From the NCBI GenBank assembly GCA_965204375.1, contig OZ241986.1, positions 5,632,001 through 5,696,000 on the forward strand: a stretch of 64,000 nt of DNA, given 5' to 3'. Position numbers and translations under genes: made by a program. Source of the stretch: Candidatus Latescibacterota bacterium. GTDB taxonomy: Bacteria > Latescibacterota > UBA2968. Shown in pieces: positions 42,227 through 61,098 of the stretch. The notes beneath the pieces are model-generated. The model had not been told where the DNA came from. It saw only the letters and a list, made by a program, of their open reading frames with translations, and ran no database searches. Position 1 is the first letter of the stretch; each line of letters begins with the position of its first letter.

Positions 42227-42247
42227 AATATATCGGAATGCATTCTT

Positions 42248-43011
42248 ATGGTTACGCTTCCTGAAATTTTGGCCTCTGAAATAGACGAAATTGCCGAATA
42301 TTTGACCAATCTATTTGGTAATGCAGCCAATTGAGTAAACACTTATTTCAGTCCAGAAAGGTTGGTCAAGCAGCCCCGTAATATTGAACCTCTCCCTGAG
42401 GAAAGAAGACAACTATCCAGCTATCGAACTCGTATAGGAACTATGCTGGAGTATGCGTTGAGTACGGAGGCAGTGCATTTGCTCAAAGAGAGATATGATG
42501 ATCAGTACTTTTTGACATTTTCTGTCGCACATGAATACCCTGATTTCTATTTCGCGATCAGGCATTGTCTATTTTGTTGCGGATAGAAATGAAAGCGGTT
42601 GACGCTGACTCTGATGAACAGGCGGCACGCTTCAGTACGCCAACGGTACAGATCAATTCTGAAGAAGATTTACTTTTGCTAATAGGTTGGGAGTGGCGGA
42701 GTTTAATACGAAGGGAAAAAATAATCGGTGAATACCCTCACATTTTTGCCTGCTGCATCATTCCTGCTGGTGAAATTGCACAGGAGCGTGATATTCGGTT
42801 AGAAAAAACGGATGGTAAAATTGAAGGTGAGCAAGTATATGTTTATAGCACCCAAAAAAGAGAATATGTACCTGATCCGGGAAATTATGGAAAGTTATGG
42901 AGAATTATTCACACATCGCGTCGGGATCCGGATATATTGAGCAAATCTATGAAGGATTTTTTGCAATTTCTAAAAGAAATTGATGATCGTTCAAATAGAA
43001 ATCGCCTTTGA
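42248..43011 (+). pseudogene. Disrupted PD-(D/E)xK restriction endonuclease
   Basis: ATG 42248, in-frame TGA at 42332, frameshift near 42551 between YPDF and IEMK; low GC; convergent with a DNA methyltransferase. Confidence 0.7.
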
Positions 43012-43023
43012 AACGGATCTGAT

Positions 43024-45300
43024 TCAATTTTTATTCGGACACAGGTTCTCTCGAATATGCGCTTCTGCTGTTTTGAGCGTTTCCTCGCCTTCCTCTAAAA
43101 TCATTCTGCTTCTTTCGCGGCAATTGATAAAATGTTTCCAGGCCATTTTGTATGTTGCGACAATTTCGTGTTGAACAGATAAAGGGGGAAGTGGAATTTT
43201 CAGGCTCAGAATAGCAGATTGATTGACGCGAGGTCTTCCAACGCCAGTAATTTGATATACAATTTGACCAAAAATAATATCACTTCGCAATAAGAAGGCG
43301 AGGTATTCTTTGTCAATTTGCCATTTTGTTTTTGGCAATATTTTTGAGGCTTCTTCTCCTAAGTCTGGATCGTCTATCGCGCTTTCAAGAGTGCAAAATA
43401 TCAAGCATTCGGAAGAAGCAAATCCTTCATTTTCATCATCTCGAATTAGAACGCATTTACGCAATTCAGGCCGCAATTTGGAAAAAAGGATATCTCCCTC
43501 ACGGTACAGGCGGACATTACTTTTTATTTGTCTTCCCAGCATTTGAGACACTGTATATTCTCCTTTATCCGGAACTATGTTCGCAAGCCCGACATAGTTC
43601 CAAATTTCGTCGGGGTCTTGCTTGGCGGGAATGGCTGTTATATTACGCGTAATGACAAGCTCTGCTAATTTGGGTGTGGGATAAATAGAACGGTTGAGTA
43701 TTTCTTCCGCAATTTTACGAGAAGGATGGTGAAATGGAACATCTAGCCTGATTCCTTGCTCCGTATTTTTAAATTGATCGGGAGAACATATAAATATCTT
43801 TGGAGCTAAATGCGTAAGTGCCTGTTCTCCATGTGCGAGATAGTTGATCCAATTTTTCAAAATAAAGGGCAGTTCATCCTGCATCTCAGGTTGTCCGTTA
43901 TCATCTCGATGTTCTGCATATAGTGGGTCTCCATTGGATTTCCGTCCCACATGCTCTGCGTGTGCCATAAAAATAGGAGGCTGAGGTTCATTGACATCCT
44001 GTTTTTTATGCAAAAAAAGTATGGATGCTTTTGCTGTTGCATATGGCATGAACGTCACATCTGGCAAACTTACTACTGCCTCAATAATAGATTGATGCAA
44101 GATTAACTGACGTACATCCGTATTGGTTTTGCCATTTAGAATACTGTCATCAATAACAATGCCCAGTCGTCCGCCAGGTTTCAGCCAATTCAGACAGCGT
44201 TCAATAAAAAGAGCACCTCTACGTCTGGAAGTTTTATTTTTTCCAAGCTCGTACTGAGATAGAGAAGTTAGATCGGAAAAATCACTTCCAAAAGGCGGAT
44301 TGGTTAAAATCAAATCTATGCTGTTGGGTGGGACAATTTCGTTTAAATGATCTGAAAAAGCGAGTGACCCACCATCCCTGAGATGATAAATCGTTCCTCG
44401 CCCATCTCCATGCATGAGAAGGTTCATTTGTGCAGTCCAGGCCATTCTTCTGTCAATTTCCAGCCCAATCAATTGGGAATTATTCTCTCTATGCTTTCTC
44501 ATGTAGGAAGTGGTTTCAATGAGAAAACCACCGCTTCCGCAGGCAGGATCACAGATTACTTGATCCGGACGAGGTTTCATAAATTCAACCATGAAGTGGA
44601 CAACTTGACGGGGAGTAAAGAATTGTTGATTGTCGGATTTATCAAAGGTGTTCCGAATCAATTCTTCATATACAACTCCTTTTATATCCTCTGAAAGGTT
44701 ATAAAGCTGTATGTCTTGTAACAATTCAACTACTGTCACAATAGCCTTTTTGTCATCACTCAATTCTCGGTGTCCATTAGTGAACACATCGGGTAGTTTT
44801 TCAATGGCTTGACGGTAAAGCAAGGTTATTCTTTCATAGGTTTCCGCAATAGATTCTCCTGGAATCTGCAAGAAAGATGTCGTATTGCGATTGGATGATA
44901 AACTTTTTCGTTCATCATAAAGTTTACAGTACAACAATTTAGAAATTTCTTCAAAGCGTTCTAGCAAACCGCCCCCCATAGAGTCTCGAAAAGCACTGCT
45001 CATTTGGCGAATCAGCAGGCGAAAGGCACGGATATCTAACTGTGGGGGTGTAGGGGAAATGGGGAAAAGCGTAGGTTGAATGACTGATGGGGTAACTGTT
45101 GGCATTCGAGTTTGATAGACCGTTCCTTGTTCACGCACAAGTTCCATCATTCGGTCCAGTGAATAAAGACGATAGCCATTTATTGGATGCCGTTCAGCGA
45201 TGAGTTTTCCCGATTTATCCCAATTGCGGAGGGTCGTAGAAGTAACGCCAAGAAGCTTCGCCGCTTCTTTTATTGTGAAGTATTCTGATTGTTTATTCAT
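43024..45300 (-). CDS. N6-adenine DNA methyltransferase with N-terminal MerR-like HTH and C-terminal target-recognition (HsdS-like) region
   Basis: TIKEAAKLLGVTSTTLRNWD..GYRLY; QFFTPR, DPACGSGGF and NPPF motifs; GDILFSKLRP and LKIPLPPLSVQ. Confidence 0.9.
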   Translation of the reverse strand: MNKQSEYFTIKEAAKLLGVTSTTLRNWDKSGKLIAERHPINGYRLYSLDRMMELVREQGTVYQTRMPTVTPSVIQPTLFPISPTPPQLDIRAFRLLIRQMSSAFRDSMGGGLLERFEEISKLLYCKLYDERKSLSSNRNTTSFLQIPGESIAETYERITLLYRQAIEKLPDVFTNGHRELSDDKKAIVTVVELLQDIQLYNLSEDIKGVVYEELIRNTFDKSDNQQFFTPRQVVHFMVEFMKPRPDQVICDPACGSGGFLIETTSYMRKHRENNSQLIGLEIDRRMAWTAQMNLLMHGDGRGTIYHLRDGGSLAFSDHLNEIVPPNSIDLILTNPPFGSDFSDLTSLSQYELGKNKTSRRRGALFIERCLNWLKPGGRLGIVIDDSILNGKTNTDVRQLILHQSIIEAVVSLPDVTFMPYATAKASILFLHKKQDVNEPQPPIFMAHAEHVGRKSNGDPLYAEHRDDNGQPEMQDELPFILKNWINYLAHGEQALTHLAPKIFICSPDQFKNTEQGIRLDVPFHHPSRKIAEEILNRSIYPTPKLAELVITRNITAIPAKQDPDEIWNYVGLANIVPDKGEYTVSQMLGRQIKSNVRLYREGDILFSKLRPELRKCVLIRDDENEGFASSECLIFCTLESAIDDPDLGEEASKILPKTKWQIDKEYLAFLLRSDIIFGQIVYQITGVGRPRVNQSAILSLKIPLPPLSVQHEIVATYKMAWKHFINCRERSRMILEEGEETLKTAEAHIRENLCPNKN

Positions 45301-45455
45301 AGAAAAATCTTTTAGTGTTTTGTAAGGTTTGAACATTATAAAAATGATGTTTGTTTAGTATAGCGTATTTTATACGAGTGTCAAGCAAATTTACCGAGTT
45401 TTTTAATTCCGGCGTAACTATTTAGGTCATTTGAATGATGAAGAAAAAAGATGCT

Positions 45456-45509
45456 GTAGGAGCGGCATCCTTGCCGCGATTAAGGCCGGGAAAGGGATTT
45501 CCCTCCTAC
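45456..45509. repeat. GTAG-type REP-like inverted doublet
   Basis: GTAGGAGCGGCATCCTTGCCGCG paired with ...GGGATTTCCCTCCTAC. Confidence 0.6.
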
Positions 45510-45709
45510 GCGACCGCAAGAACCTAAATAATTACATTCCGGCTTTGTCCAGAAATGGACTATGCTCTGAAAATGATCCTTTATATGGCACGGTATTTGC
45601 AGAAGTGACATAGTGCCAAATATGAGTCGTTTTTTGGTCATTTTGAGATCGTTTTTTTCAATCAGAAGGACAATTTTTTCACTCACACACTGTGGAGGAG
45701 TTTTGAGAT

Positions 45710-46798
45710 ATGAAATTGACGCTTTCAATTCCGCGTTCTCGTCCGGCGCATCTGGCGAGTTTTTCCGCTCCAGAGGGATGTGAGGCGCCGCTGTTGCAGT
45801 TGAAGGGGAGAGGTGAGGTGCTGATTGCCGAACGCGATCCTTCTGCGCCTGTTTATCACGTGAATCTGCCCGCGCTGGCCGGGGGTGAGGAAGCGAGTTT
45901 TGAGGTGTTGGCATTGGATAGTGCAGATGCGGCTGCGGGGATTTCGTCGCGCGATGCCGATGGGAAACTCAGTGTTTCTCTGGCGAGTTCGCCATTTATG
46001 ACGTTTCACCATACGACGGATTATCCCAAGCCGGTTATCAATCCGATTTTGACGCCGAATGGGACCAATATGTTGCGCGAGCCGATGGCGGCGTGGGGGG
46101 AGGGTGAACACCCCTGGCAGCGGGGGTTGACCTTGATGCAGGGGGCTATAAATGGGGTGGATTGCTGGAATGAGCGGCCCAACCAACCGGGATATGGGCG
46201 CACGGCGCAGGATGATATTTCTATTTCGCACAATCCATTGTCTCTTGTGATCGCTTCTGAAAATACGTGGTATGAAGGCGACCGCGCGCTGATGAGTGAT
46301 AGTCGTTTGTATCGATTGTACGATTCGGGGCGGGATGCCGCGGTTCTGGATATTGCGCTGACGCTCAAGGCTTCTCACGGTGCGGTGACAATTGGGGATA
46401 CGAAGGAGGGTGGATTTTTGTGCATTCGCGTGAATCCGTCGATGAATGCCAATGCCGATGGAGAGATGCGCAATGCCTATGGTGCGACGGATGAGACGGG
46501 GTGCTGGTCGTTGCCTTCTCACTGGATGGATTACTACGGTCCGGTGGGCGATGAGGTGGCCGGGTTTGCCATTTTTGATCATCCGCAGAATTTCCGATAT
46601 CCTACCACATGGCATGTGCGCGGTTATGGTTTGTTTGCGCCCAATTGCTGGATGTTCAAGCCAGACCACCTTATGCCCGATGGCGAGTCTATGACGTTTC
46701 GCTGGCGCGTGATTGTGCATACGGGGGATACGGCGCAGGCCGATATTGCAAATCGCTTTTTGGATTATGTGGATGGGTCGCGTGTGGTATGGGAATAG
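45710..46798 (+). CDS. PmoA-like (PF14100/DUF6807-type) protein, not methane monooxygenase
   Basis: HPWQRG, DTKEGG and FDHPQN..PTTWHVRGYGLFAPN motifs. Confidence 0.75.
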   Translation: MKLTLSIPRSRPAHLASFSAPEGCEAPLLQLKGRGEVLIAERDPSAPVYHVNLPALAGGEEASFEVLALDSADAAAGISSRDADGKLSVSLASSPFMTFHHTTDYPKPVINPILTPNGTNMLREPMAAWGEGEHPWQRGLTLMQGAINGVDCWNERPNQPGYGRTAQDDISISHNPLSLVIASENTWYEGDRALMSDSRLYRLYDSGRDAAVLDIALTLKASHGAVTIGDTKEGGFLCIRVNPSMNANADGEMRNAYGATDETGCWSLPSHWMDYYGPVGDEVAGFAIFDHPQNFRYPTTWHVRGYGLFAPNCWMFKPDHLMPDGESMTFRWRVIVHTGDTAQADIANRFLDYVDGSRVVWE

Positions 46799-49557: not shown

Positions 49558-51345
49558 TCATTTCTCATCTGTTGTTAAGTTTTCATCATCGTGCGTGACA
49601 TAGAGAAATGCGGTACACATTTCATCGGTCGATTTTTCGCCCCATCGCACCAGCCTGGGTGGATTGTTGGGGTTTCGGGGGTTGTCGGCAGAGTTGTCGT
49701 AAAAGGCTTCGAGCGTGATACGGGTGCCGCGCGGGAGTGCGATGGGTGTTTTGTACACGTAGGTTTCTTGCCAGTTAAAGTCCCAGGGTTTGACCCATAT
49801 TAAGGATTGTTGCGTGCCGCCGGGATAGGTTGCGGTTATTTTCATTTCCGTGCCGAGCAAGTGCATGTGAGGCAAGATGCCGAGCAGGTGCTGGTCGCGT
49901 GTGATGGTGATTGCGCCGGTTACTCTGTGTTGTTTGATGTTGGGTGGAATGAAGAGCAAACGGCTGTTGATGACTTCTTCGCGGAGTTGTTTTTGTACGG
50001 GTTTTTGGGCAAAGTAGATGCCCAGGCGGGAATGATCTTTTACGGCGCGGCCAATTTTGTGATAGTGGATCTGGAGGATGATGTCGCTGTTGGGCGGCAA
50101 ATCGCGGCCTATGCCATCTGGAAGAACAAAGGGGGTGTTGCCGGGTGCCCAGCCGCCCAGGGATTCGTAGATGGGTACGCCAATGCCGCCAAAGCAGGGG
50201 TATCCAGGCGAGGATGCGTTTTCCTGTTGCAGGCGCGCTTTGCCAGAGATGTCGATGTACACGCTGACGTGGTGGACGACTTCGCGCTCTCCGGGCAGGA
50301 CTTCAATAGCCGATACGTAGTTGCCCGTGTCCTGTTTTGTGGGCAAGACAAAGCAGCGGTATTCGTCGCGGCCCATGGCTTCGAGTGGATAGGGTGCTTC
50401 GGGTTCGAGGATCAGGTCGGGCGTGCCCAGGGTCCAGCTTTTGGAAAATGCGATGGGTTCGGGCTGGTCGGCGGGATTGCCCTGGGGCATGCCGCTGTTG
50501 ACCCATTGCGCGAAGGTGTGGATTTCGGCGTCTGTGAGTCTGCGGGAATTTTTGAAGTCGCCGTATTCGGGGCGCGCTTTCCAGGGTGGCATGATGCGGG
50601 CTTCGATGGAGTCGCGCATCTGATAGGCCCAGGCGAGTACTTCTGTGTAGTCAAAAAAGGGTACGCGACCGATGCCGCCGGGGCGATGACAGTTCTGACA
50701 GCGATTTTGGAGCAGGGGCAGGATGTCGCGATAAAATGTTGGGGTGGAGGTGTTCGCGACAGTTGTTTGCCGGGGAGTGCGTCTGATTTCACAGCCAAAA
50801 CTGGGGAGGCTGGTGTTGGCGATTTTGCGGTTGGCGAGTAGTGCATCAAGGGCGTCCCATAATCCGCGCGAGGTCGTATCTTCGGGGATGCCCCAGCCGT
50901 TGTCGATTTCGCCCTTGTAACGCAGGCGGCGCTGGGCGTCAAAGAGAAAGGCATGGGGGGTATGGGTCGCGCCGAGGTGGTCGGCGAGTTTGTTGTGAGG
51001 GTCGCGCAGGACAGTGAAGGGTACGGGGTTTTGAGCGTAGTGTTCTTTGATGTCTTTGTCGGTTTCGTTAAAATTGGCATTTACAGATATCAGGTGTACG
51101 CCTTTGGGGGCATACTGATCGTGTATTTTTGTTCGGTGTATGTCGTATTTGAGCGAGGCAGGGCAGACGACGGAACTGAAGATGATGACGAGTGCGCGGT
51201 CCTGGGATAAATCACTGAGGGTAACGGGCGAGCCGTTGAGGTCGGCAAGGGTAAAGTCATTGAGGGTGTCGCCGATTTGGAGGGGAGCGGCCCAGGGGCA
51301 AATCGGGAAGGCGAGAAAGAGTGCGATGACGAGAGGGCGTTTCAT
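49558..51345 (-). CDS. Redoxin + cytochrome c-like + copper type II ascorbate-dependent monooxygenase-like multidomain protein
   Basis: Signal peptide; CPAS..THTPHAF..YKGEID redoxin; CQNCH; VVHH, QIHYH, PHMHLLG, WDFNWQ and DEMC motifs. Confidence 0.8.
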   Translation of the reverse strand: MKRPLVIALFLAFPICPWAAPLQIGDTLNDFTLADLNGSPVTLSDLSQDRALVIIFSSVVCPASLKYDIHRTKIHDQYAPKGVHLISVNANFNETDKDIKEHYAQNPVPFTVLRDPHNKLADHLGATHTPHAFLFDAQRRLRYKGEIDNGWGIPEDTTSRGLWDALDALLANRKIANTSLPSFGCEIRRTPRQTTVANTSTPTFYRDILPLLQNRCQNCHRPGGIGRVPFFDYTEVLAWAYQMRDSIEARIMPPWKARPEYGDFKNSRRLTDAEIHTFAQWVNSGMPQGNPADQPEPIAFSKSWTLGTPDLILEPEAPYPLEAMGRDEYRCFVLPTKQDTGNYVSAIEVLPGEREVVHHVSVYIDISGKARLQQENASSPGYPCFGGIGVPIYESLGGWAPGNTPFVLPDGIGRDLPPNSDIILQIHYHKIGRAVKDHSRLGIYFAQKPVQKQLREEVINSRLLFIPPNIKQHRVTGAITITRDQHLLGILPHMHLLGTEMKITATYPGGTQQSLIWVKPWDFNWQETYVYKTPIALPRGTRITLEAFYDNSADNPRNPNNPPRLVRWGEKSTDEMCTAFLYVTHDDENLTTDEK

Positions 51346-51350
51346 TGTGA

Positions 51351-52040
51351 TCAAATGTTGCGTTTTCGCAGGTAGTCGATGAGAAAGATGAGTGTGACTA
51401 TTCCAAAAAATCCGGCGATTGATAGGGCGATGTAGTGGCTTTCGTTCGGGAGTCGCCAGTATTGTATTATAACAAATATAAGGGCGGGGACAAAGAAGAT
51501 GAGCGTGCCCAACAATGCATATATCGATTGTGTGGCGGGTTCTATTTGAGGCGTATCGCGAGTTGTGGGCTTTATGGTTGGAGGAGCCGTTTCGGGAGGT
51601 TTGACGCGGGCGAGCATTTCTATGACGTTTTTGCGATAGCTGTTGTCGGCAGCGGCATATACGCTCCAAAAGGCGGAGATTTCTTCGGCACCCGTGCGGG
51701 TAAATTTCTTTTCGAGTGCGCGTTTGCGCTCAAGAGAAAGTTCGGCGGGTGCTTTTTTTTCGTGTTTTCGAAGGTCGTCGAGAATGTGTGTGAGGCTGGC
51801 GTCGTACCCGTGAATCCAGGGATAGGTGGCGTGTTGGAGCAATTTTTCATCGGGGTTTGTGTCGCCAAATTCACGGAGATATGCGTCAATGAGTTTTTTC
51901 CGCTCGATTTTAGACCCTGCGCCGGGAAAGTGTTTTGCCCGCAATTTGCCGTCGCGTTGAAAGGGCAAATAGAGATGGTTGTGATCCGCTATTTCGAGGA
52001 TGCGTTTGAATGCGTTGATGAGCGTTTGGCGGTGGGACAT
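51351..52040 (-). CDS. Hypothetical protein with two C-terminal TM helices
   Basis: 229-aa ORF filling the operon gap; no family recognised. Confidence 0.65.
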   Translation of the reverse strand: MSHRQTLINAFKRILEIADHNHLYLPFQRDGKLRAKHFPGAGSKIERKKLIDAYLREFGDTNPDEKLLQHATYPWIHGYDASLTHILDDLRKHEKKAPAELSLERKRALEKKFTRTGAEEISAFWSVYAAADNSYRKNVIEMLARVKPPETAPPTIKPTTRDTPQIEPATQSIYALLGTLIFFVPALIFVIIQYWRLPNESHYIALSIAGFFGIVTLIFLIDYLRKRNI

Positions 52041-52068
52041 GGAAGATAGTGTAGGATAACCACAGGGA

Positions 52069-52098
52069 GTAGAGACAACCTCTTGAGGTTGTCCCTAC
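52069..52098. repeat. GTAG/CTAC-bounded REP-like palindrome
   Basis: GTAGAGACAACCTC-TT-GAGGTTGTCCCTAC. Confidence 0.65.
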
Positions 52099-52107
52099 AG
52101 GCGGATT

Positions 52108-53418
52108 TTATCCGTTGACTGCTTTTCCAAAGCTTGCGACAAATATGAGAAAGTCGGGAAAGTCAACAGTGCCGGATCCGTCGAGATCAAAGGTTGCATT
52201 GGCCGTGCCAAAGGCTTCTGAGAATAGGAGGAAGTCATAAAAGTCAACGGTGAGCGAACCATTGAAGTCGGTGCGTGGGTCAGCGGGGACGAAGATGGCC
52301 GAACCGGTGATGGTCAGGCTGATTGAGGTTTTTTCCGGGTCGTTTGAGATTATGTCGATGGTGCCGGTAATTGGACCTGGGGCTGGCGGATTGAAAGTCA
52401 CGGTGATGTCCTGAGATTGACCGGGTGGCACTGTTAATTGGGTTTCTGAAAGCGCAATGCCCGCGATGTCGGATTGGATGTCTGTGATGTTGAGTGGGCC
52501 TGTACCAGTATTTGTGATGGTAAATGTTGTTGTGACGCCTCTGCCCATTTCGATTTCGCCCAGGCTCAAGTTTTCCTGAATTAGTGATATGGTCGGGAGT
52601 TGAGACGCTTCGATGGTGAGGTTGACAAAAGGGAACTCCAGGGCGCCAACACTTTGTTCGCCGTGTTGCAGGGTGATTTTACCCGAAAATGTGCCGGCTT
52701 GTGTCGGCGTCAGGGTGATTTGTAAGGTTTTGCTTTCGCCGGGTGCTATGGTCAGTGTGGATGGCTCCATTGTGATGCCTTCGGGAGCTGTGTATCCGGT
52801 GATTTCGAGGGGACCGGCACCGGTGTTTTCGATTTTAATTTCGACGGTTTTGGATTGTCCCACTTCAAGGGTTCTGCCAAAGTAGATCTCCGATGGGAAG
52901 AGGGAAATAACAGGCGTTTTGTTGAGTAGTGCATCGACTTGCGCGTTGATCAGGTCATGAGTGCCGGTGGCGATTGCTGTGGTCCTGAGGCGCAAGATGC
53001 CTCCCTGGTCGATGACGAGGATATCTTCGTTGCGAGTGCCGAGGGTTCCGGAGACGCCCGAGGCATTTGTGAGTAGCGGTGTCGTAACACTGGATTGTGT
53101 CAGATAGGATGTTGCCTGTGTGCGGTTGCCGTCATATCTGTCGAGTGTGAGGATCTGTATGCCGGTTTTGTCTTTGTTGCGTTGGTGAATATTTTTTTCA
53201 AAGGCGGGACCCGCCCCTATGCAAGTCCCTCAGTTGTAGCCTACAAAAAAGAGGACGGAGACGGTATTTGTCGAATGGCTGACGCCGTAAAACCTGCCAT
53301 CGGTGGCTTGAAGTTGAAATTCGCCTACTTGTTCGCCTACTCTGGGCTGGGCAAAAGTTGTTGTGCATAAGCCCAAAAATAGGGCGATAGAGAAAATACG
53401 CATTTGCAGGTGTTTCAT
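52108..53418 (-). CDS. Secreted redoxin (UxxC) selenoprotein with two Ig-like domains and a paired EF-hand/dockerin-like C-terminus
   Basis: The 62-aa ORF (signal peptide, FQLQATDG..VLFFVGYN) ends in TGA 53232-53230; the frame stays open (U-G-T-C..ILVIDQGGILR) and joins ORF 52108-52995; 436 aa in total. Confidence 0.85.
53200..53218 (-). promoter_or_regulatory. Candidate bacterial SECIS element
   Basis: After UGA plus an 11-nt spacer: AGGGGCGG-GUC-CCGCCUUU, with G23/U24 in the loop as in E. coli fdhF. Confidence 0.72.
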
Positions 53419-53572
53419 GGTGTTCCTCCATAAGGTGAGAGAATTGACCGCTGATTGCTAATATACTAAATCGCGTGCAAAATGTCACGGGGTTTGCGCT
53501 TGATTTTGGGGTTTGGTTTATCTACATTGTCTTTACGTTTCGAGTGTTCTGCGGTTCCCATTTTTTTCTTCT

Positions 53573-54706
53573 ATGTCTCTATCTATAAATGACTTTGAAG
53601 CTGTGGTTCAGCGCGCCATCGCGCTCCGCGATGGCGGCGATCTGGAAGCGGCTGTTGCGGGTTTTGATGCAGCTGTTGCGATCCGCGATGGCGATCCCGT
53701 TGTGTTTGTTCAGCGCGGGATTACTTATGGGCAATTGGGGAGCTTTGATGCGGCGATTGCAGATTTTGACCGCGCAATCGCTCTGACACCAGATGATCCA
53801 TGGGTGTGGAGCAATCGCGCGATTGCCTGCGGGTTGATGGGGCAGTTTGATGCGGCGATAGATAGTTTCGGAAAGGCTGTTGCGCTCGATCCGGAAAATA
53901 CGCAGGCACTTGCCAGCCGGGGGGAGACCCTGCGCGAGATGGGGCGGTTTGAAGAGGCTCTGGGGGATCTCAATCGGGTTTTGGCGTTGGATGCGGATTA
54001 TTTTGGCGCGCTGATCAGTCGCGGGCATGTGTCGATGCAGTTGGGGCAGTTTAACGCGGCGGCGGTCGATTTTGACCGGGCGATTGCAGTTGGCAATGGG
54101 CATCCGGATGCGTTTGCCGGGCGGGCGGAGATCTATCGACAGGCTGGTGAGGCTGAGGCCGCGATGGAGATGTTTGGGGAGGCTTTGAAGGCGATGCCCG
54201 ATCATCTGGGTGCATTGATCGGACGGGGCGAGGTGCTGCGAGAGTTCGGTCAAGTGGAGGACGCGCTTTTGGATTTTGACCGCGCACTCGTTGTCGCACC
54301 TGACGACCCGGATTTGTTGGCCGCGCGGGGTGATATGTTGCGGCAATTGGGGCGAAGTGCCGAAGCAATACGCGATTTTACACGGGCGCTGGAGATTTTT
54401 CCCGATCATCTGTGGGCACTTATGGGGCGGGGCGTTGCGTTGCGGATGGAAAATGATCCCGAGGCGTCACTGGTCGATTTTGATCGGGCGGTGATGCTGG
54501 AGAACAGGGATGCGTGGATTTGGGCAAATCGCGGGGAGTCTCGACGGATGCTGGGGCAATTTGAGGCAGCGGTTTCGGACTTTACACGGGCGTTGGATAT
54601 CGATCCTGAAAATGGATGGGCACGAGAACTTCGCGCGGAGACGTTTCGTCAAATGGGACGATTTGCCGAGGCGGTTGAAGATATGAATCGGGCACGGGCG
54701 CAATGA
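53573..54706 (+). CDS. TPR repeat protein (about 10 regular 34-aa repeats)
   Basis: Repeated RG....LG..D.A..DFDRA.AL.P pattern; ATGA overlap with the YcaO gene. Confidence 0.9.
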   Translation: MSLSINDFEAVVQRAIALRDGGDLEAAVAGFDAAVAIRDGDPVVFVQRGITYGQLGSFDAAIADFDRAIALTPDDPWVWSNRAIACGLMGQFDAAIDSFGKAVALDPENTQALASRGETLREMGRFEEALGDLNRVLALDADYFGALISRGHVSMQLGQFNAAAVDFDRAIAVGNGHPDAFAGRAEIYRQAGEAEAAMEMFGEALKAMPDHLGALIGRGEVLREFGQVEDALLDFDRALVVAPDDPDLLAARGDMLRQLGRSAEAIRDFTRALEIFPDHLWALMGRGVALRMENDPEASLVDFDRAVMLENRDAWIWANRGESRRMLGQFEAAVSDFTRALDIDPENGWARELRAETFRQMGRFAEAVEDMNRARAQ

Positions 54707-55713
54707 GCGAGTCGCATCATATTGTTGTTGCTGATCGCACGGTTCCGTTTGAAGAGACTATTGAGCGGTTCGGGGAGGCACTGTCCAGGAAGTGTCGGTT
54801 TCAAACGCGCGCGCGGCGGTTTTACGATACGGTGTGGATCGCCGATTGTTATACGGATTACGTGCAGTCGGCGCTGTTTCGCAAATACGAAGGGCCTCTG
54901 ATGGAGGGTATCGCGCTTCGCACGATGGGCAAGGGGCTTTCCAAACAGCAAGTGCTGGCCGGGGCGATGGCAGAGGCGGTAGAGCGCATTTCGTTTTTTG
55001 ATGCGCTGGCGAGCGGGAGGGAGACTCCCATTTATGAGTTGACTACCGATGTAGAGCTTGTGCCGTCCAGTATGAAGGTGTCGGATGTGCCGCATTTGAA
55101 TGATTCGGCAAATGGGGTATCGGCGGGTAATACTGTGCTGGAGTGCGTGTTTCACGGTTTGCTGGAGATGCACGAGCACCTGGATGTGGGGAGGCATTTT
55201 TACTGGCCCGGGTTGGAACACCGGCAATTTATCGATCCGAATTTGACGGGTTTTTCCCCTCGCGTCACAGAGAAGATGCTGGCTGTGGCCGTGCCGGGGG
55301 AAAATGAGAAGGTGACGACGGTTCACGCGGTGGTGTGCCCCAAAGATTTGGGACCTCTGGTGCGTACATGCACGCATTTGGATGGGCGCATGGCATTGCA
55401 GCGGGCGTTTAATGAGACTGTTCAGAGTCACAAAACGCGGTTTGTATCTGATTTGCAGACTTTTGATGCCGAGATTGCACTGTGGGATTTGCCCAATCAT
55501 TTTACGGATGATTTGATAACTGATATTCAGGTGGTTTTGGGCGGTATGAAAAATTCGGTTTATGTGCAGGATTGGACAGATCCAGAGATGCAAATTCCAG
55601 TGTTGCGGCCATTTAGTTTAAAGACCTCAGAACACGAGCGGGACCACGCCATGATCGAGACGTATGTGCATCGCATTATGGTGGATTCGGGCAATTATAT
55701 TGTTTGGACGTGA
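54703..55713 (+). CDS. YcaO-like family protein
   Basis: DRTV..EET, GKG......AMAEAVER and SANGVSAGN......HGLLEMHEH ATP/Mg-binding-like motifs; DWT.PEMQIPVLR. Confidence 0.8.
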   Translation: MSESHHIVVADRTVPFEETIERFGEALSRKCRFQTRARRFYDTVWIADCYTDYVQSALFRKYEGPLMEGIALRTMGKGLSKQQVLAGAMAEAVERISFFDALASGRETPIYELTTDVELVPSSMKVSDVPHLNDSANGVSAGNTVLECVFHGLLEMHEHLDVGRHFYWPGLEHRQFIDPNLTGFSPRVTEKMLAVAVPGENEKVTTVHAVVCPKDLGPLVRTCTHLDGRMALQRAFNETVQSHKTRFVSDLQTFDAEIALWDLPNHFTDDLITDIQVVLGGMKNSVYVQDWTDPEMQIPVLRPFSLKTSEHERDHAMIETYVHRIMVDSGNYIVWT

Positions 55714-55716
55714 TGT

Positions 55717-55811
55717 GACGAATAGACGAATAGACGAATAGACGAATAGACGAATGGAGATACACACTGATTTTGGGAGGATGGGCGGGGTTCGTAGATT
55801 CGTAGATTCGC
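55717..55811 (+). repeat. Dispersed repeat element, copy 2: (gacgaata)x4 + core + gattcgta-type arm
   Basis: Four perfect octamers plus one variant; core shared with 33585-33708; the two arms are roughly complementary. Confidence 0.9.
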
Positions 55812-55831
55812 GACTGCCGCAGGAGGATTCA

Positions 55832-56677
55832 ATGATACCAAAAGCCATTTATCGATTCGGCGTTTTGGGTATTGCATTGACCATGGCTTGTAGCAAGGCG
55901 GCCGATCCTGAATATGTGATTGAAGAATCTGTTGTGACCACGCCTGCGGGTACTGAGCATGTGCAGGTTTTTGTTCCGGCCAGTACTTTTACGATGGGGG
56001 CGAGCGATGGTCCCACCAATGAACGTCCGCCGCACGAGGTGATGCTCGATGCATTTTATATCGATAAATACGAGGTGACCAACGCGCAGTATTTGGCTTA
56101 TGTCGAGGCCACGGGAAGTGAACATTCGCAGTTTTTTGGGATAGAGGGCTTTGACCAGCCCGATCAGCCGGTGGTGGGGGCTTTGTGGTCTCAGGCGCGG
56201 GATTATTGCCAGTGGGCGGGTTTGCAATTGCCGAGCGAGGCGCAATGGGAATTGGCCGCTGCGGGTACGGATGGGCGCATGTTTCCCTGGGGCAATGAGC
56301 CTGCGAGTGAATTGCTGTGCAATTTTAATTTCAGTTCGGGCCCCATGCCTGTGGGCAGCTATCCAGATGGTGCAAGTCCTTATGGCGCGATGGATATGGC
56401 GGGCAATGTGTGGGAGTGGACGCTGGATGAATATCAGCATACGTATTACGCAAATAGCCCCATGCACAATCCGGTGAATTTGCAAAATTCAGGTATGGAA
56501 GATGGGCCAGATCGCACGTTGCGCGGTGGGAGTTGGTTTTCACCACAACCCAGTATCCGCGTGTTTGTGCGGAGTACGGTTTTGATTATGGAAGAGCAAG
56601 CTCTGTCGCGCGACGATTTTGATACTTATGAAATATTTGCCCATATTGGGTTTCGGTGTGCGCGGGGAGAGCCTTAA
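55832..56677 (+). CDS. FGE-sulfatase (SUMF1-like) domain lipoprotein
   Basis: LTMAC lipobox; F.MG, YEVTNAQY, LPSEAQWE, DMAGNVWEW, RGGSW and GFRCA motifs; ATG after AGGAGG. Confidence 0.9.
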   Translation: MIPKAIYRFGVLGIALTMACSKAADPEYVIEESVVTTPAGTEHVQVFVPASTFTMGASDGPTNERPPHEVMLDAFYIDKYEVTNAQYLAYVEATGSEHSQFFGIEGFDQPDQPVVGALWSQARDYCQWAGLQLPSEAQWELAAAGTDGRMFPWGNEPASELLCNFNFSSGPMPVGSYPDGASPYGAMDMAGNVWEWTLDEYQHTYYANSPMHNPVNLQNSGMEDGPDRTLRGGSWFSPQPSIRVFVRSTVLIMEEQALSRDDFDTYEIFAHIGFRCARGEP

Positions 56678-56772
56678 TTGTATTAAAAAAGCCAAGTCAT
56701 CGCATTGGTGGCCGTTGCTCTTGTGGGGGTGACGGTTTACATTTTTTTATTGGCGCATCAACAGGACGTGTT

Positions 56773-59538
56773 ATGCGGTTTGGGAAATTTCACATTTTAT
56801 GGGTGATTCTGGTGTTTGCGTCGTGCAGCCGGGAGCGCGAGGTGCCCAATTTGGTGCGTGCTTCTGAGCCGGGGTTTACGGGGCTGGAACGGTGCGCTGC
56901 CTGCCATACCGACAAGTATGCCGAGTGGCGGCAGAGTTTGCACAGTGTCGCTATGACTGTGCCGAGTGATTCGACGATTGTGGGCGATTTTGACAATGTG
57001 TCCCATGTGTATGGCGGTGTGCGTTCGCGCATGTTTCGCAGGGGTGGTGCGTATTATATGCAGACTGAGGATAAGGATGGGCGCGTTGAGGCATATCGCG
57101 TGGATTACGCGATTGGCAAGCGACAGCATCAGGCTTATTTGACGGCTTTTCCCAATGGGCGATGGCAGGTGTTGCCGCTGTATCACGATGGCGCGACAAA
57201 TGATTGGGTCGATGCACAAGAAGGGGGGGTGGTGGCTCAGTCGCGGCCCCTGTCGGGAGAAGATTATTATTTCTGGACGAATGCGGGGCGCACGTGGAAT
57301 TTTCACTGTTTTGATTGCCATGCCAGCCGGGTGCAAAAGCATTACGATGTGCCTACTCAGGCTTATCGCACGACTGTGGGCAGTCTGAGTATTGATTGCG
57401 AGGCGTGTCACGGGCCGTCGGGCAAGCACGATGAGACGCGCGGACAGGTCGATGCCCCGTTGCATTTGCTGTTGTTGCGGTCGCTGGATAAGGAACGAGC
57501 TGTTGAAGTGTGTGCCCAGTGTCATGCTGCCAAGGAGATTGTGGCGACCGGGTATTTGCCGGGTGAGAATTTTTACGATTATTATTCTCTTGTGTTGCCA
57601 GATGACGAGGCGATTTTTTATCCCGATGGACAGCCCCGGGTTTATTTATATCCCACAGCATTGCATTTGATGAGTGCGTGCTATGTTCAGGGCGAATTGA
57701 CATGTACGACATGCCACGACGCGCACGGAACAGCGCGCGATGTCGATCTGGTGGCGGATCGAAATGGCGTGGAGTTGTGCGAAACGTGTCACGGTGATAT
57801 CGCAGCTGATCCGGTCGCGCATGGGCATCACCGCGCGGGCAGTGTGGGCAATCAATGCGTGCAATGTCATATGCCGTATCACTATGTGACGGGGGAAAAT
57901 TTGACGGATCATCGCATTGCATCTCCTGCGCCTGAAAATACGGTGGTCAATGGCGTGCCCAATGCGTGCAATCAATGTCACGACGATAAGTCTCCGCAAT
58001 GGGCTTCTGCGTGGGCAAAGCAGTGGTACGGCGATTATCAGCGCGAAATTGTGGCGCGTACAACGGCGATTGCCAATGGGCAAAAGGGCGGTGGGGTGGC
58101 ACCGTTGATGCAGTTGGTAAACGACGGGGGTGAGAGTGCGGTTTGGCGTGCAACGGCTGCGTCTTTGCTGGGGAGCCTGGGGGATGTACGCGCAGTGCCA
58201 GCGCTGGTTGAGGCGATGGACGATTCGCATGCGATGGTGCGGATGAAAGCCGCGATTTCGCTGGGGCGTTTGGGCGATGTACGCGGTCTGTCTGCGCTTT
58301 TGGATGCGTTGTCCGATTCAGCGCGTATTGTGCGGGTGCAAGCGCCGTTCGCGCTGATGGATATTGGCTATTTGCCAGATGGTTCTGCTGTGGGCGATGC
58401 GTTTCGCAAGGCACTTGAGGAGCATCGCGATGTGGTGTATGGCGTGCAGGGCGACGATCCGGGCTTTCACGAGAGTTTGGGACAGGTGTATGAAGCGCAG
58501 GGGCTTTTTGAAGATGCGAGGCGGGAGTTTGAGATTGTTGCGAAGTTAGATCCCCGGCATCCGGAGACCGCGGCTGATCTGGCGCGATTGGCGCAAAAAC
58601 AGAAGCGTTTTGGGCAGATGAGGGACTCGCTCAAGGAGAAGGGCGATTTGATTTCTCGATTGCGCGCAGGTGCATTGCTGTTGCACCACGGGCGCTATGT
58701 AGATGCTGCGGTTGCTTTTGATGATGTGCGCGATGGTTCGCCCGTTTTGCATACTGCTGTGGGGAATGCGCTGTGGGGCAGTGGGGACCGCGCAGGTGCT
58801 ATCGAAGTCTATCGCCGTGCGCTTGCAATTGCGCCGGGATACAAACCGGTGATTCGACAACTCGCGTTATTGGCGTTTTCGGCTGGCGATGGCGAGGTGC
58901 GCGATGATTATGAGTGGGACGAGATGCCGATAGGCGATTGGGTGGAAAAGGGGACGGCACACGCACTGTCGGGCGATTGGGCACTGGCACGCGCGGCATA
59001 CCGCAGAGCGCTGGAAATGGAGGATGCGGGTACGGGATTATTTGGGTTGGGCAGGCAGGCGCGAGAAGCGGGGATCGCAAAATCGGATTCGGCTTTTGCC
59101 ACCGGGCACCGCGTCTATGTACAGGGTGCGCTGGCAGATGCGTTGCCGCATTTTGAAGTTGCGAAAAAATACCATGCCAACCGCGCCGATGTGTATGCGA
59201 TGCAGGGGCTTATTCGCGCTGATTTGGGCGAGTTAGAGGTTGCCGAGTCTCTTTTGCTCGATGCGTTGATTGTCGATCCTTTTTATGTGCCCGCGCTTAC
59301 GGTGCTGGGTACGGTTTTACAGGAGCGCGGCGATATAGAAGGTGCGCTGTCTGTGTATCGACAAGCGTGGGTGCTGGAGCCGGAAGCGCAGGGGTTGGAG
59401 TTGTTTATGGGACAGGCTTATGCCATAAGTGGACAGCGAGATAGTGCGATTGTGGTTTTGCGGCGCGTGATTGCGCGCGAGCCGGGCAATGTGCAGGTGC
59501 GCGATTTGTTGCGCGAATTGGAAGGGCGTGAATTGTGA
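56773..59538 (+). CDS. Multiheme (8 CxxCH) cytochrome c with HEAT and TPR repeats
   Basis: CAACH, CFDCH, CEACH, CAQCH, CTTCH, CETCH, CVQCH, CNQCH; LG.LGD.RA...L HEAT repeats; C-terminal TPRs. Confidence 0.88.
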   Translation: MRFGKFHILWVILVFASCSREREVPNLVRASEPGFTGLERCAACHTDKYAEWRQSLHSVAMTVPSDSTIVGDFDNVSHVYGGVRSRMFRRGGAYYMQTEDKDGRVEAYRVDYAIGKRQHQAYLTAFPNGRWQVLPLYHDGATNDWVDAQEGGVVAQSRPLSGEDYYFWTNAGRTWNFHCFDCHASRVQKHYDVPTQAYRTTVGSLSIDCEACHGPSGKHDETRGQVDAPLHLLLLRSLDKERAVEVCAQCHAAKEIVATGYLPGENFYDYYSLVLPDDEAIFYPDGQPRVYLYPTALHLMSACYVQGELTCTTCHDAHGTARDVDLVADRNGVELCETCHGDIAADPVAHGHHRAGSVGNQCVQCHMPYHYVTGENLTDHRIASPAPENTVVNGVPNACNQCHDDKSPQWASAWAKQWYGDYQREIVARTTAIANGQKGGGVAPLMQLVNDGGESAVWRATAASLLGSLGDVRAVPALVEAMDDSHAMVRMKAAISLGRLGDVRGLSALLDALSDSARIVRVQAPFALMDIGYLPDGSAVGDAFRKALEEHRDVVYGVQGDDPGFHESLGQVYEAQGLFEDARREFEIVAKLDPRHPETAADLARLAQKQKRFGQMRDSLKEKGDLISRLRAGALLLHHGRYVDAAVAFDDVRDGSPVLHTAVGNALWGSGDRAGAIEVYRRALAIAPGYKPVIRQLALLAFSAGDGEVRDDYEWDEMPIGDWVEKGTAHALSGDWALARAAYRRALEMEDAGTGLFGLGRQAREAGIAKSDSAFATGHRVYVQGALADALPHFEVAKKYHANRADVYAMQGLIRADLGELEVAESLLLDALIVDPFYVPALTVLGTVLQERGDIEGALSVYRQAWVLEPEAQGLELFMGQAYAISGQRDSAIVVLRRVIAREPGNVQVRDLLRELEGREL

Positions 59539-60728
59539 AGCGCTGGATGAAAATTGTCGGTGTTGGCGTGCTGGCGTTGGGTTGCGTCTCTGGTGTGTTT
59601 TATGTGTTGCAGCCGGAAGAGGCGGTTCGGTTTGCCGCTCGCCCGGGTTTTTTGTGGCGCATCCAGAGTGACCAGTCGTGCGAAGGGTGTCATCGGAATA
59701 TCGATCCGGGTATGGATAAACAGTGGCGCGAAAGTGCCCATTTTCGAGCCAATGTGGGGTGTGCAGATTGTCACGGCGAGAACCACGAGACGGTTTTTGC
59801 TGTTCGGGGGCAGGTGTCGGCGGGGATGTGTGGCAAATGTCACGCAGAAGAGGTTGCGGCATTTGCCGAGAGCGGACATGCCGATGCAGAATTGGCCGCG
59901 TTGTCAGATGCGCGTTTTTTGGCGCAGTCTCGCGCGATGCAAGAAGAGGGGTGTATGGGGTGCCACAGCATTGGTGCCCGGTTTGCCGATGGCAGCGTGG
60001 GGGGGTGCAATACCTGTCATCCGAGTCATGAATTTAGTGCGGCGCTTGCGCGAGAGCCAGAGGCATGTGCCGTTTGTCACGGCGGTCCGGATCATCCGGT
60101 GATGGAGGCGTATAAGACGAGTATTCACGGGGTTTTGTATTATGCGGATAGGGATGCTGAGAAGTCGCCGAGTTGTGTGACGTGTCACATGCCCAATGGC
60201 GATCACGGGCATGTGGCTAATATCGGGTTGGGTGCGGTATTTACGGGCGCGGTACTCGAGGAGGATTTTTTGCCGCATCTGGCGATGAAGCGTTTGACAA
60301 AAGAGGAATTTGAAGCGAATCGGAATGCGATGTTGCAAGTGTGCGCGCCGTGTCATTCCAATCGGTTTTCTCGAGAGAGCCTTGAGCGCGCAGATGCGAT
60401 TAAGCGCGAGGCAGACGCGCTGGTTGCGGAATCTTATGCGTTGATTAAGGCGTTGTACGATGAAGGAGCGTTGGATCCCATGCCCGAAGACCGTCCGGCC
60501 AATCCGGTGGTTGGACACGCTTTTGAGCTGGGCGGGCAGCAGTTATACGAAAATACATCGGAGATTGAGCAGGCGTTTTTCAGGTTGTTCAAGTTTTATC
60601 ACGCGACTACGTTTAAGGCGGCGTATCACCATTCGCCAGATTATACGCATTGGGAGGGTATCGTGCGGATGAAGATGGAGATGGATAAAATCCGTACGGA
60701 GGCAAGGCGGTTGCGGAAAGGCAACTGA
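59535..60728 (+). CDS. Compact octaheme cytochrome c, HAO family
   Basis: N-terminal TM; CEGCH, CADCH, CGKCH, CMGCH, CNTCH, CAVCH, CVTCH, CAPCH; CHGGPDHP and HHSPDYTHWEG; GTGA overlap. Confidence 0.88.
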   Translation: MKRWMKIVGVGVLALGCVSGVFYVLQPEEAVRFAARPGFLWRIQSDQSCEGCHRNIDPGMDKQWRESAHFRANVGCADCHGENHETVFAVRGQVSAGMCGKCHAEEVAAFAESGHADAELAALSDARFLAQSRAMQEEGCMGCHSIGARFADGSVGGCNTCHPSHEFSAALAREPEACAVCHGGPDHPVMEAYKTSIHGVLYYADRDAEKSPSCVTCHMPNGDHGHVANIGLGAVFTGAVLEEDFLPHLAMKRLTKEEFEANRNAMLQVCAPCHSNRFSRESLERADAIKREADALVAESYALIKALYDEGALDPMPEDRPANPVVGHAFELGGQQLYENTSEIEQAFFRLFKFYHATTFKAAYHHSPDYTHWEGIVRMKMEMDKIRTEARRLRKGN

Positions 60729-60749
60729 TCTTCGCGGTGTGGAATGGCC

Positions 60750-60808
60750 GTAGGGGCGAGGCAGGCCTCGCCCGTGTTTGTCATCGCGGCATGATTTTGA
60801 GCCGCGAT
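60750..60808. repeat. GTAG REP-like hairpin plus a second hairpin, possibly the operon end
   Basis: GTAGGGGCGAGGC-AG-GCCTCGCCC; ATCGCGGC...GCCGCGAT. Confidence 0.55.
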
Positions 60809-61098
60809 CAAGTGTTTGTATTGTAAGTGATTACTAAACTGTTAAAAGATGTAAAAAAAATGAGTTGCATAGCGCATAATTTTTTTTTACATTAAATCGA
60901 AATTTTTGGAAACATTTTTGAAACAAACTTTTAATCTGTTGTGTCTTGATGGCTGTTTTTGTGCTGTATGTTTCAGATGTGAGAAGAAAATAATAAAATA
61001 AAAAGGAGGTGATGGATAGAGATAGATTTGTTTTGCGTTGCATATAGTAAAGTTGTTAAGTCGTTCATTTTTCGCAGTTTGCGAAAGGAGGTAGCACT

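Follow-up and report, generated by a model that had tools for sequence, protein, structure and literature searches.

Within a 64,000-nt stretch of contig OZ241986.1 (positions 5,632,001 to 5,696,000, forward strand; assembly GCA_965204375.1) from a Candidatus Latescibacterota bacterium, which we refer to as the window, two overlapping genes encode a compact YcaO-family protein and, directly upstream of it, a protein built of tetratricopeptide repeats (TPR) from end to end. We show that the second protein belongs to the YcaO family by profile and by fold and has retained its motifs, that it represents an isolated clade in which the TPR gene and further neighbours are conserved alongside, and that the partner proteins of known YcaO systems are absent. 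From these observations we infer catalysis, binding between the two proteins, the kind of chemistry and the substrate. At somewhat less than even confidence, we read the pair as a cytoplasmic two-protein system that would modify a backbone amide of a gene-encoded protein in an ATP-dependent manner, assisted by the TPR protein. That the product would specifically be a thioamide is possible, but considerably more doubtful.

The 336-aa protein had been called YcaO-like from its letters alone in an original prediction on this DNA, and both the profile and the fold agree. PF02624 matches at 49.1 bits (E 6.5e-13, gathering score 25.7), with residues 130-254 only being aligned, and the orthologues in two distant loci, L020 and L024, likewise score above the threshold of this family. 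From 22 family members, an AlphaFold2 (AF2) model of moderate quality (pLDDT 65, pTM 0.73) was obtained. When used as a query in Foldseek, this model returned 40 matches at E <= 0.001, which are YcaO-type proteins throughout among the matches listed; the best was Methanopyrus kandleri YcaO (6cib, E 1.9e-9, TMq 0.62), and further matches include the YcaO proteins of Escherichia coli and Methanocaldococcus jannaschii, LynD, MusD, TruD and McbD. A profile search of PDB sequences placed M. jannaschii MJ1094 on top (E 2.2e-6).

The motifs pointed out in the original prediction are present in the translation as GKG...AEAVER at residues 76-95 and S-x6-E-x3-H-x3-E-x2-E-H, which ends in 'EMHEH', at residues 140-159. 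In all 22 aligned members of the family, motif 1 (G76-K77-G78, E91, E94-R95), motif 2 (S140, E147, H151, E155, E158) and motif 3 (RAxxExxQ; R234, E238, Q241) are invariant. When seven distant YcaOs are added, G76, K77, G78, E91, E94, G142, E147, H151, E155, E158, R234, E238, Q241 and D290 are still invariant, whereas S140 and R95 are invariant within the family only. The Arg of ExxER, which has a phosphate-contacting role, corresponds to H159 here. As the remaining positions are invariant, the YcaO motif reported as Sx6-7Ex3Qx3ExxER (PMC7774982) is kept with two changes, namely of the Gln to H151 and of the final Arg to H159. Because motifs 1 to 3 are retained, we read the protein as probably catalytically competent, with an alteration at the phosphate-contacting position. 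The family furthermore has invariant residues of its own, comprising Cys49, Cys148, which adjoins Glu147, Cys212 and Cys223, which is part of a C-x-H-L-D sequence, as well as His208, His225 and His243. The C-terminal PxPxP tail is missing, there being no proline in the last 30 residues, as had been predicted.

The upstream protein consists of 11 canonical 34-residue repeats, lacks a signal peptide and is acidic (pI 4.49, compared to 5.43 for the YcaO protein). An Arg occupies position 7 of each of its 11 repeats (residues 14, 48, 82 ... 354, with a period of exactly 34), in most cases running on as R-G/A-E/D-x-x-R, and six Arg of this ladder are invariant in 14/14 orthologues. These orthologues align over their full length and across all 11 repeats at 39-95% identity, apart from an additional repeat in L018 and L019 and the loss of one in L019. 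The closest solved sequences are those of consensus TPR superhelices and the TPR domain of OGT. We place the start of the gene at 53573 and not at the TTG at 53513, since in three distant relatives a stop codon stands right before the conserved ATG.

Both the TPR assignment and the ATGA overlap with the YcaO gene had been claimed before and were reproduced, and the pairing proved to be conserved. In tblastn searches with the proteins of the window, a TPR orthologue was found immediately 5' of the YcaO gene in 24/25 related loci, the 25th of which begins within the YcaO gene and has no upstream DNA. Even L020, L023 and L024, the loci farthest removed, retain the pairing, at 60-68% identity for the YcaO protein and 40% for the TPR protein. 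Among 14 related loci for which the junction was examined, 12 show an overlap (ATGA in 11, GTGA in one) and two a short gap, which suggests that the two genes are translationally coupled. The region was also compared, over 51000-61000, to contigs from four RNA-labelled libraries of four studies, labelled as coral or sponge metagenome. One such contig, of 2,321 nt, spans 53459-55716 and thereby both genes of the pair, with 39 differences, while a 4,623-nt contig of a second study, which stems from a relative, runs from the TPR gene through the YcaO and FGE-like genes into the cytochrome gene. A prediction of the complex of the TPR protein (A2) with the YcaO protein (A1) gave an ipSAE of 0.00 in both runs, with no controls being folded, a result that counts neither way as to whether the two proteins bind.

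How isolated, then, is this YcaO? When 5.8 billion clusters were searched by word index, 27 proteins came up, at 59-95% identity; where named, these are called 'YcaO-like' or, automatically, 'S12 methylthiotransferase accessory factor'. HMMER, run exhaustively against 1.84 billion representatives at 50% identity, gave 16 matches at E <= 0.001. The first four of these are the one representative of the family and three fragments, which is to say a single 50%-identity cluster, and the others begin at E 8.3e-7 with 27-38% identity. Of the NCBIfam models, the McrA type scores best (TIGR03266, 38.3 bits against a cut-off of 365), followed by the generic YcaO kinase domain (33.7 against 75.65), the SagD type (TIGR03604, 15.7 against 219.25) and the E. 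coli type (NF040716, 15.6 against 700). As judged from sequence, the clade is extremely isolated and lies outside every curated clade tested, so that the divergent subfamily proposed in the original prediction does not fall within one already characterised. In the literature on YcaO with TPR, or on YcaO in Latescibacterota, no paper on this family was found.

The distribution of the family is equally confined. It occurs in 27/168 genomes of the phylum, the present one (G000) included, all of which belong to the taxonomic family f1: 26 of the 30 other f1 genomes carry it, compared to none of the 138 genomes of 13 other families. Within f1, it is present in all genomes of genera g1 (20/20), g2 (1/1) and g5 (3/3) and in two of three of g3, and absent from g4 (0/1) and g6 (0/2); one of the two g6 genomes is complete, at 8.4 Mb. 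The lineage comprises uncultured Latescibacterota associated with sponges and corals. In distant loci, the YcaO proteins are 60-62% identical, as opposed to 40% for the TPR protein, 43-45% for the FGE-like protein and 32-37% for the membrane protein hyp229 introduced below, and the YcaO gene is by far the most conserved of the cluster and under strong constraint.

A distant but specifically related group consists of four metagenomic YcaO-like proteins (P0033, P0038, P0041 and P0045; alignment A4) that are likewise compact, at about 350-410 aa. While these are just 21-22% identical to the present family, they align over residues 9-307, including the N-terminal domain, with an hhalign probability of 99.5 and an E of 9e-23, compared to an E of only 6.7e-9 for a canonical TfuA-linked YcaO. 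They also lack the motif Arg, having L, H or T after ExxE. Together, the two may form a wider, undescribed branch of YcaO proteins. A metagenome scan with A4 gave four loci, of which one is the P0033 locus, one a partial match and two are classic YcaO-TfuA pairs. Only the P0033 locus has usable context: downstream of its YcaO gene come a response regulator and a large protein in which TPR_19 matches weakly, while any upstream neighbour is out of view, the contig ending 228 nt from the gene.

None of the partners that usually accompany a YcaO enzyme was found. A Pfam scan of 33.7-64 kb of the window, covering 18 neighbouring products, detected no TfuA, ThiF/E1, SagB/nitroreductase or RRE (recognition element for ribosomally synthesised peptides that are modified post-translationally, RiPPs), in line with what had been reported for the surroundings of the pair. 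Moreover, the whole genome (6.34 Mb in a single contig, 96% complete) contains no match to PF07812 (TfuA), and the present gene is its sole YcaO. The flanking gaps of 154 and 119 nt hold no precursor-like open reading frame (ORF), only random-looking ones of 25-37 aa as judged in this genome, and no transporter, protease, dehydrogenase or RRE was found in the conserved gene set.

The original prediction described the pair itself correctly, but overlooked that it heads a same-strand run of genes, continuing with an FGE-like lipoprotein and two cytochromes, that amounts to an exported redox-lipoprotein operon, and that an orphan membrane protein, hyp229, is co-distributed with it. The FGE-like gene lies downstream of YcaO in 23/25 loci, the exceptions being L023, which ends inside the YcaO gene, and L014, where it is located elsewhere; the cytochrome, or a paralogue of about 40% identity, is found near YcaO in 21/25. 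In g5 and g3, it is the shorter cytochrome paralogue that adjoins YcaO. The g5 loci are reshuffled, with the choice-of-anchor-D gene flipped, hyp229 directly divergent from the TPR gene, and a run in the order TPR-YcaO-cytochrome-FGE; the gene set nevertheless stays together while its flanks differ. The cytochrome family as a whole occurs in 28/31 f1 genomes and is absent from g4 and g6, the genera without YcaO, while FGE-like paralogues exist in 31/31.

Like the YcaO, hyp229 occurs in 27/168 genomes, in f1 only, with two mismatches between the two patterns, both in fragmented genomes (82% and 88% complete). It is present in 21/25 loci, the other four having no upstream DNA. In its AF2 model (pLDDT 82), about 145 residues form an all-helical domain that a disordered Pro/Thr linker joins to a membrane hairpin of two helices. 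The soluble part has a pI of 9.49, opposite in charge to the TPR (pI 4.5) and YcaO (pI 5.4) proteins, and within its longest coil F38, G40, A41 and G42 are invariant and P39 and K44 nearly so. No Pfam or NCBIfam family matched hyp229. It has relatives in 86 database clusters, none of them informatively named, and a Pfam family was attached only to the weakest of these, a partial match covering 35% of the query. Its fold gave no Foldseek match at E <= 0.001 and no usable match in the ESM Atlas, and the VIA-align matches concern the C-terminal helical hairpin only, at Z <= 7.8, a range that is common for helices.

On our preferred reading, the YcaO protein would bind ATP/Mg2+ through its three kept motifs and phosphorylate the hemiorthoamide that arises at one of the substrate's peptide bonds. 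Rather than a neighbouring Cys, Ser or Thr side chain, the nucleophile would be external, with a sulfide or persulfide equivalent as the most likely choice and a thioamide as the product. We prefer such thioamide-type chemistry over azoline formation because the closest relatives are thioamidating, a His occupies the Gln position of motif 2 and the PxPxP tail is missing. A His at this position is reported as being preferred in TfuA-associated, thioamide-forming YcaOs (PMC8120280), and PxPxP has been called 'canonical' for azoline-forming ones (bioRxiv 10.1101/2025.07.11.664356). The invariant Cys that follows the Mg-binding Glu147, and the one two residues before His225 in the HLD motif, might deliver or hold the nucleophile, and could in this way stand in for TfuA in sulfur delivery.

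The acidic superhelix of 11 TPRs could serve as a scaffold or as a substrate adaptor that recruits the substrate, as was already proposed in the original prediction, and would correspond, in split form, to the TPR domain that E. coli YcaO carries as a fusion. That enzyme is reported to thioamidate folded uL16, with its TPR domain mediating dimerisation and possibly substrate binding, and uL16 and McrA are given as the established protein substrates of YcaOs (PMC13063428). The substrate of the present system would most likely come from its conserved neighbourhood, with hyp229 as the first candidate; second come the redox lipoproteins encoded in the operon, which would be modified ahead of their export by Sec. 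We rank hyp229 first because it shares the distribution of the YcaO, is always adjacent, presents a basic cytoplasmic domain to the acidic TPR and YcaO proteins and has an invariant Gly-rich loop; its complementary charge mirrors the electrostatic logic reported for E. coli YcaO and uL16 (PMC13063428). In its most specific form, our proposal would be that a TPR-guided YcaO with a built-in cysteine relay thioamidates hyp229, or a multihaem-cytochrome or FGE-like lipoprotein before Sec export, as a third protein-substrate system, with even a selenoamide being conceivable in an organism rich in selenoproteins. We regard this full version as a long shot.

Several observations weigh against the preferred reading. 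The conserved synteny is limited to one bacterial family, and because its genomes are close kin and not independent samples, the synteny may reflect one ancestral arrangement, and the co-distribution one event of gain or loss. In 22/22 sequences H159 replaces the Arg of ExxER, so that ATP use could be altered, and the moderate confidence of the model limits how well the invariant Cys can be placed relative to the active site. A fused TPR-YcaO that would join the two partners was not found among longer proteins (656-2000 aa), although this is weak evidence. The contigs from RNA-labelled libraries are no proof of transcription, nor of one transcript, and neither stretches left uncovered nor libraries with small shares of the sampled words carry any information. 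No cytochrome gene stands beside YcaO in L013, L014, L017 and L023, the last of which ends in the YcaO gene, and in L014 the FGE-like gene is elsewhere too. Conversely, the genome carries a paralogous multihaem/HEAT/TPR cytochrome (G000:C1:2109282-2111357; about 742 aa, with some 40% identity) as well as an FGE-like gene (2123466-2124146), about 12 kb apart and outside the window, with no YcaO near them.

Could the enzyme instead modify a universal cytoplasmic protein, for instance a ribosomal one as E. coli YcaO does with uL16, its redox genes being neighbours by descent only? The YcaO gene being the most conserved of the cluster is what would be expected if the target were a conserved folded protein, and the E. 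coli enzyme is likewise described as having a TPR domain while lacking both TfuA and a substrate gene nearby (PMC13063428). A universal target sits oddly, however, with a distribution over one family of the phylum (27/168 genomes) and one isolated cluster world-wide. Furthermore, the score on the E. coli YcaO model is a mere 15.6 bits against its cut-off of 700, the pI is 5.4 and not the 4.4 reported as a hallmark of uL16-modifying YcaOs (PMC13063428), and the pairing with hyp229 and the operon outlasts the shuffling of gene order. We therefore find such a housekeeping role unlikely, if less so than the two other alternatives.

An altered function is somewhat harder still to credit, in which the protein would be an ATPase or scaffold that activates a non-peptide target, or would help to regulate or assemble the exported cytochromes. 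It would fit the invariant change of Arg to His, as well as the absence of the motif Arg from the distant but specifically related A4 proteins. We know of no YcaO that has been shown to act on a non-peptide substrate. For the YcaO-TPR protein DVU2210, a small oxyanion (molybdate) has been hypothesised as the target, a proposal that in the source is a hypothesis only (PMC7774982). Against this alternative, the invariance of all acidic Mg/ATP ligands and of motifs 1 and 3 speaks for phosphotransfer chemistry being retained. The least probable of the three alternatives is a RiPP maturase whose small precursor either escaped notice or has its gene elsewhere, and in which the TPR protein takes the place of an RRE/E1 leader-binding partner. 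TPR domains do bind extended peptides, most characterised YcaOs are described as RiPP enzymes (PMC13063428), and sponge Latescibacterota are reported to be rich in biosynthetic clusters (PMC9426513). On the other hand, a typical precursor gene would not fit into the gaps on either side of the pair, and the partners in the operon are redox lipoproteins instead of tailoring enzymes. A protein substrate, as in our preferred reading, fits better than a RiPP because there is no conserved ORF of precursor size, no RRE/E1, dehydrogenase, protease or transporter in the conserved set and no PxPxP, and because the YcaO is single, under strong constraint and has an obligatory TPR module.

Table 1. Features of the TPR-YcaO locus, in positions of the window
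Feature	Position	Strand	Description
hyp229	51351..52040	-	orphan; basic all-helical cytoplasmic domain and C-terminal two-helix membrane hairpin
Secreted thioredoxin-like selenoprotein with choice-of-anchor-D Ig-like domains	52108..53418	-	TGA at 53230-53232; AhpC-TSA; OS_HP2 (seleno)protein domain
Divergent intergenic (promoter) region between selenoprotein and TPR genes	53419..53572	.	154 nt; from the ORF map
TPR partner gene	53573..54706	+	377 aa; TPR from end to end (TPR_1 E 9.4e-64, Pfam)
ATGA stop/start overlap of TPR and YcaO genes	54703..54706	+	...gcaATGAgcg..., read from the sequence
Compact YcaO-family gene	54703..55713	+	336 aa; PF02624
8-nt tandem repeat GACGAATA between YcaO and FGE-like genes	55717..55755	.	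4.9 copies; skipped by the contigs of relatives
8-nt tandem repeat TTCGTAGA between YcaO and FGE-like genes	55791-55810		2.5 copies
FGE-sulfatase-like lipoprotein, next gene of the operon	55832..56677	+	PF03781 E 3.4e-47; lipobox LTMAC
Multihaem cytochrome c lipoprotein with HEAT and TPR regions	56773..59538	+	8 CxxCH; Pfam; start at the Met before the lipobox
Octahaem cytochrome, Multi-haem_cyto, weakly HAO/HDH-like	59535..60728	+	PF13447 E 8.1e-24; 8 CxxCH
Best terminator-like hairpin of the region	60754..60773	+	8-pair stem, 7 GC pairs

Downstream of the pair, the spacer between the YcaO and FGE-like genes is about 119 nt here, as opposed to about 12 nt in most relatives, because of the longer of the two 8-nt tandem repeats (Table 1), which relatives lack. 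The bin that holds the tandem repeats shows a very high summed depth in the contigs from RNA-labelled libraries, which suggests that the repeat unit is common elsewhere. The octahaem cytochrome gene overlaps the preceding cytochrome gene by 4 nt, and its product scores 105 bits on NF052343, for which the cut-off is 900. In five relatives (G072, G078, G079, G083 and G088), the match to the 960-aa cytochrome ORF contains one in-frame TGA, which could stand ahead of the true start or mark a selenocysteine. The operon probably ends at the hairpin given in the table, while terminator-like sites in total (13, compared to 11.2 in shuffles) are not more numerous than expected.

Upstream, the divergent intergenic region contains a single sigma-70-like site, on the minus strand at 53488-53460. 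The selenoprotein gene, reading from 53418 to 52108 on the minus strand, is indeed transcribed away from the pair as the original prediction had it and is among the genes co-conserved around it, and its in-frame TGA, in an N-U-G-T-C (UxxC) context, is kept in 10/10 relatives examined. About 15 nt after this TGA, a GC-rich hairpin (GGCGGG/CCCGCC) could be a SECIS element; in distant loci, the redoxin is a separate gene of the Cys type. The link to chalcogen chemistry that had been suggested on account of this neighbour is one of gene adjacency only and is not supported by the findings. The minus-strand genes also include a redoxin/copper-monooxygenase-like protein, another TPR protein and an aquaporin. 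The first of these (49558-51669) is a fusion that unites redoxin/AhpC and one CxxCH with a copper type II (PHM/DBH-like) monooxygenase, both halves of which are present, and is conserved in g1 relatives.

A class-V aminotransferase (Aminotran_5) resembling cysteine desulfurase was considered as a local source of sulfur and rejected. It occurs in two g5 loci only, L023 (136-1353) and L024 (242-1462), where it lies upstream of redoxin-DUF6029 genes and about 5.3-5.5 kb from the TPR gene, on its upstream side. As neither the window nor any other locus examined contains it, it falls outside the conserved set. As to the window in general, GC skew is positive in every 2-kb bin from 1 to 64000 (0.01 to 0.34), whichever strand carries the genes, which is an unusually strong asymmetry between the strands; even the minus-strand block at 47-53 kb reaches 0.22-0.29. 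An island of low GC content (0.42, compared to about 0.52) at 42001-46000 contains, at 43024-45336 on the minus strand, a fusion of a MerR helix-turn-helix, an N6-DNA-methylase and a specificity domain, which is probably a horizontally acquired restriction-modification gene.

What would these findings mean for the YcaO superfamily? To our knowledge, McrA and ribosomal uL16 are the only known protein substrates of YcaO enzymes, both at the heart of central enzymes. This clade is a clean candidate for a third, as well as for nucleophile delivery independent of TfuA, and its conserved neighbourhood provides a short list of testable substrates. The route of a sulfide equivalent to uL16 is stated to be an open question for E. 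coli YcaO (PMC13063428). If the most specific form of our proposal is true, it would be the first link of backbone editing to periplasmic redox machinery and, together with the A4 group that lacks the Arg, a new and mechanistically distinct branch of the superfamily. The restriction to one family of uncultured sponge and coral bacteria does limit the breadth of this significance.

The YcaO superfamily, YcaOs with protein substrates and YcaO-TPR fusions are already known. The claim of an undescribed TPR-YcaO system consequently stands in part: the combination as such has precedents in E. coli YcaO (PMC13063428) and DVU2210 (PMC7774982), while the isolated family with its split partner has none of which we are aware. 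What is new is the split TPR partner with its apparent translational coupling, a clade without close relatives, the altered ATP motif and the set of invariant Cys, as well as the embedding of the pair in a periplasmic redox-lipoprotein operon beside a co-distributed orphan membrane protein.

When compared to characterised systems, the azoline-forming cyclodehydratases of the thiazole/oxazole-modified microcins (TOMM), such as SagD, LynD, TruD and McbD, share the YcaO fold and the ATP/Mg glutamates with the present protein. They differ from it in their profile, on which it reaches just 15.7 of 219.25 bits (TIGR03604), and in their PxPxP tail; moreover, no E1-like protein, Ocin-ThiF, RRE or dehydrogenase is found among the neighbours here, nor a precursor-like ORF. 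Closer in composition are E. coli YcaO, the thioamidase of uL16 Met82 with a fused TPR domain of about 150 residues (PMC13063428), and DVU2210, a fused YcaO-TPR protein (PMC7774982). Like the present pair, these combine a YcaO with a TPR module and do so without TfuA or a local precursor, and the fold of E. coli YcaO (4q84) matches our model at E 1.8e-8. Here, however, the TPR module is a separate upstream protein of 377 aa with 11 canonical repeats rather than a C-terminal domain, and the reported pI of E. coli-type YcaOs is 4.4 (PMC13063428) compared to 5.43 here. The closest likeness is to the archaeal YcaOs that thioamidate a glycine of McrA (methanogenesis marker 1; 6cib and 6ci7 from M. 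kandleri, 6peu and 6pe3 from M. jannaschii). These are likewise compact, single-domain proteins of about 340-385 aa, provide the best match both to PDB sequences and in fold, and have a His at the Gln position of motif 2 as well. Both work, or are encoded, without TfuA, which is reported to be missing from some archaeal members of the McrA-type group (PMC5589413), and the archaeal enzyme acts on a protein. Nevertheless, identity in the structural alignment is about 18% and the score on TIGR03266 only 38.3 bits of 365, and the present system differs in being bacterial, in having no MCR, in its dedicated TPR partner, in the His that replaces the Arg of ExxER and in its four family-specific invariant Cys.

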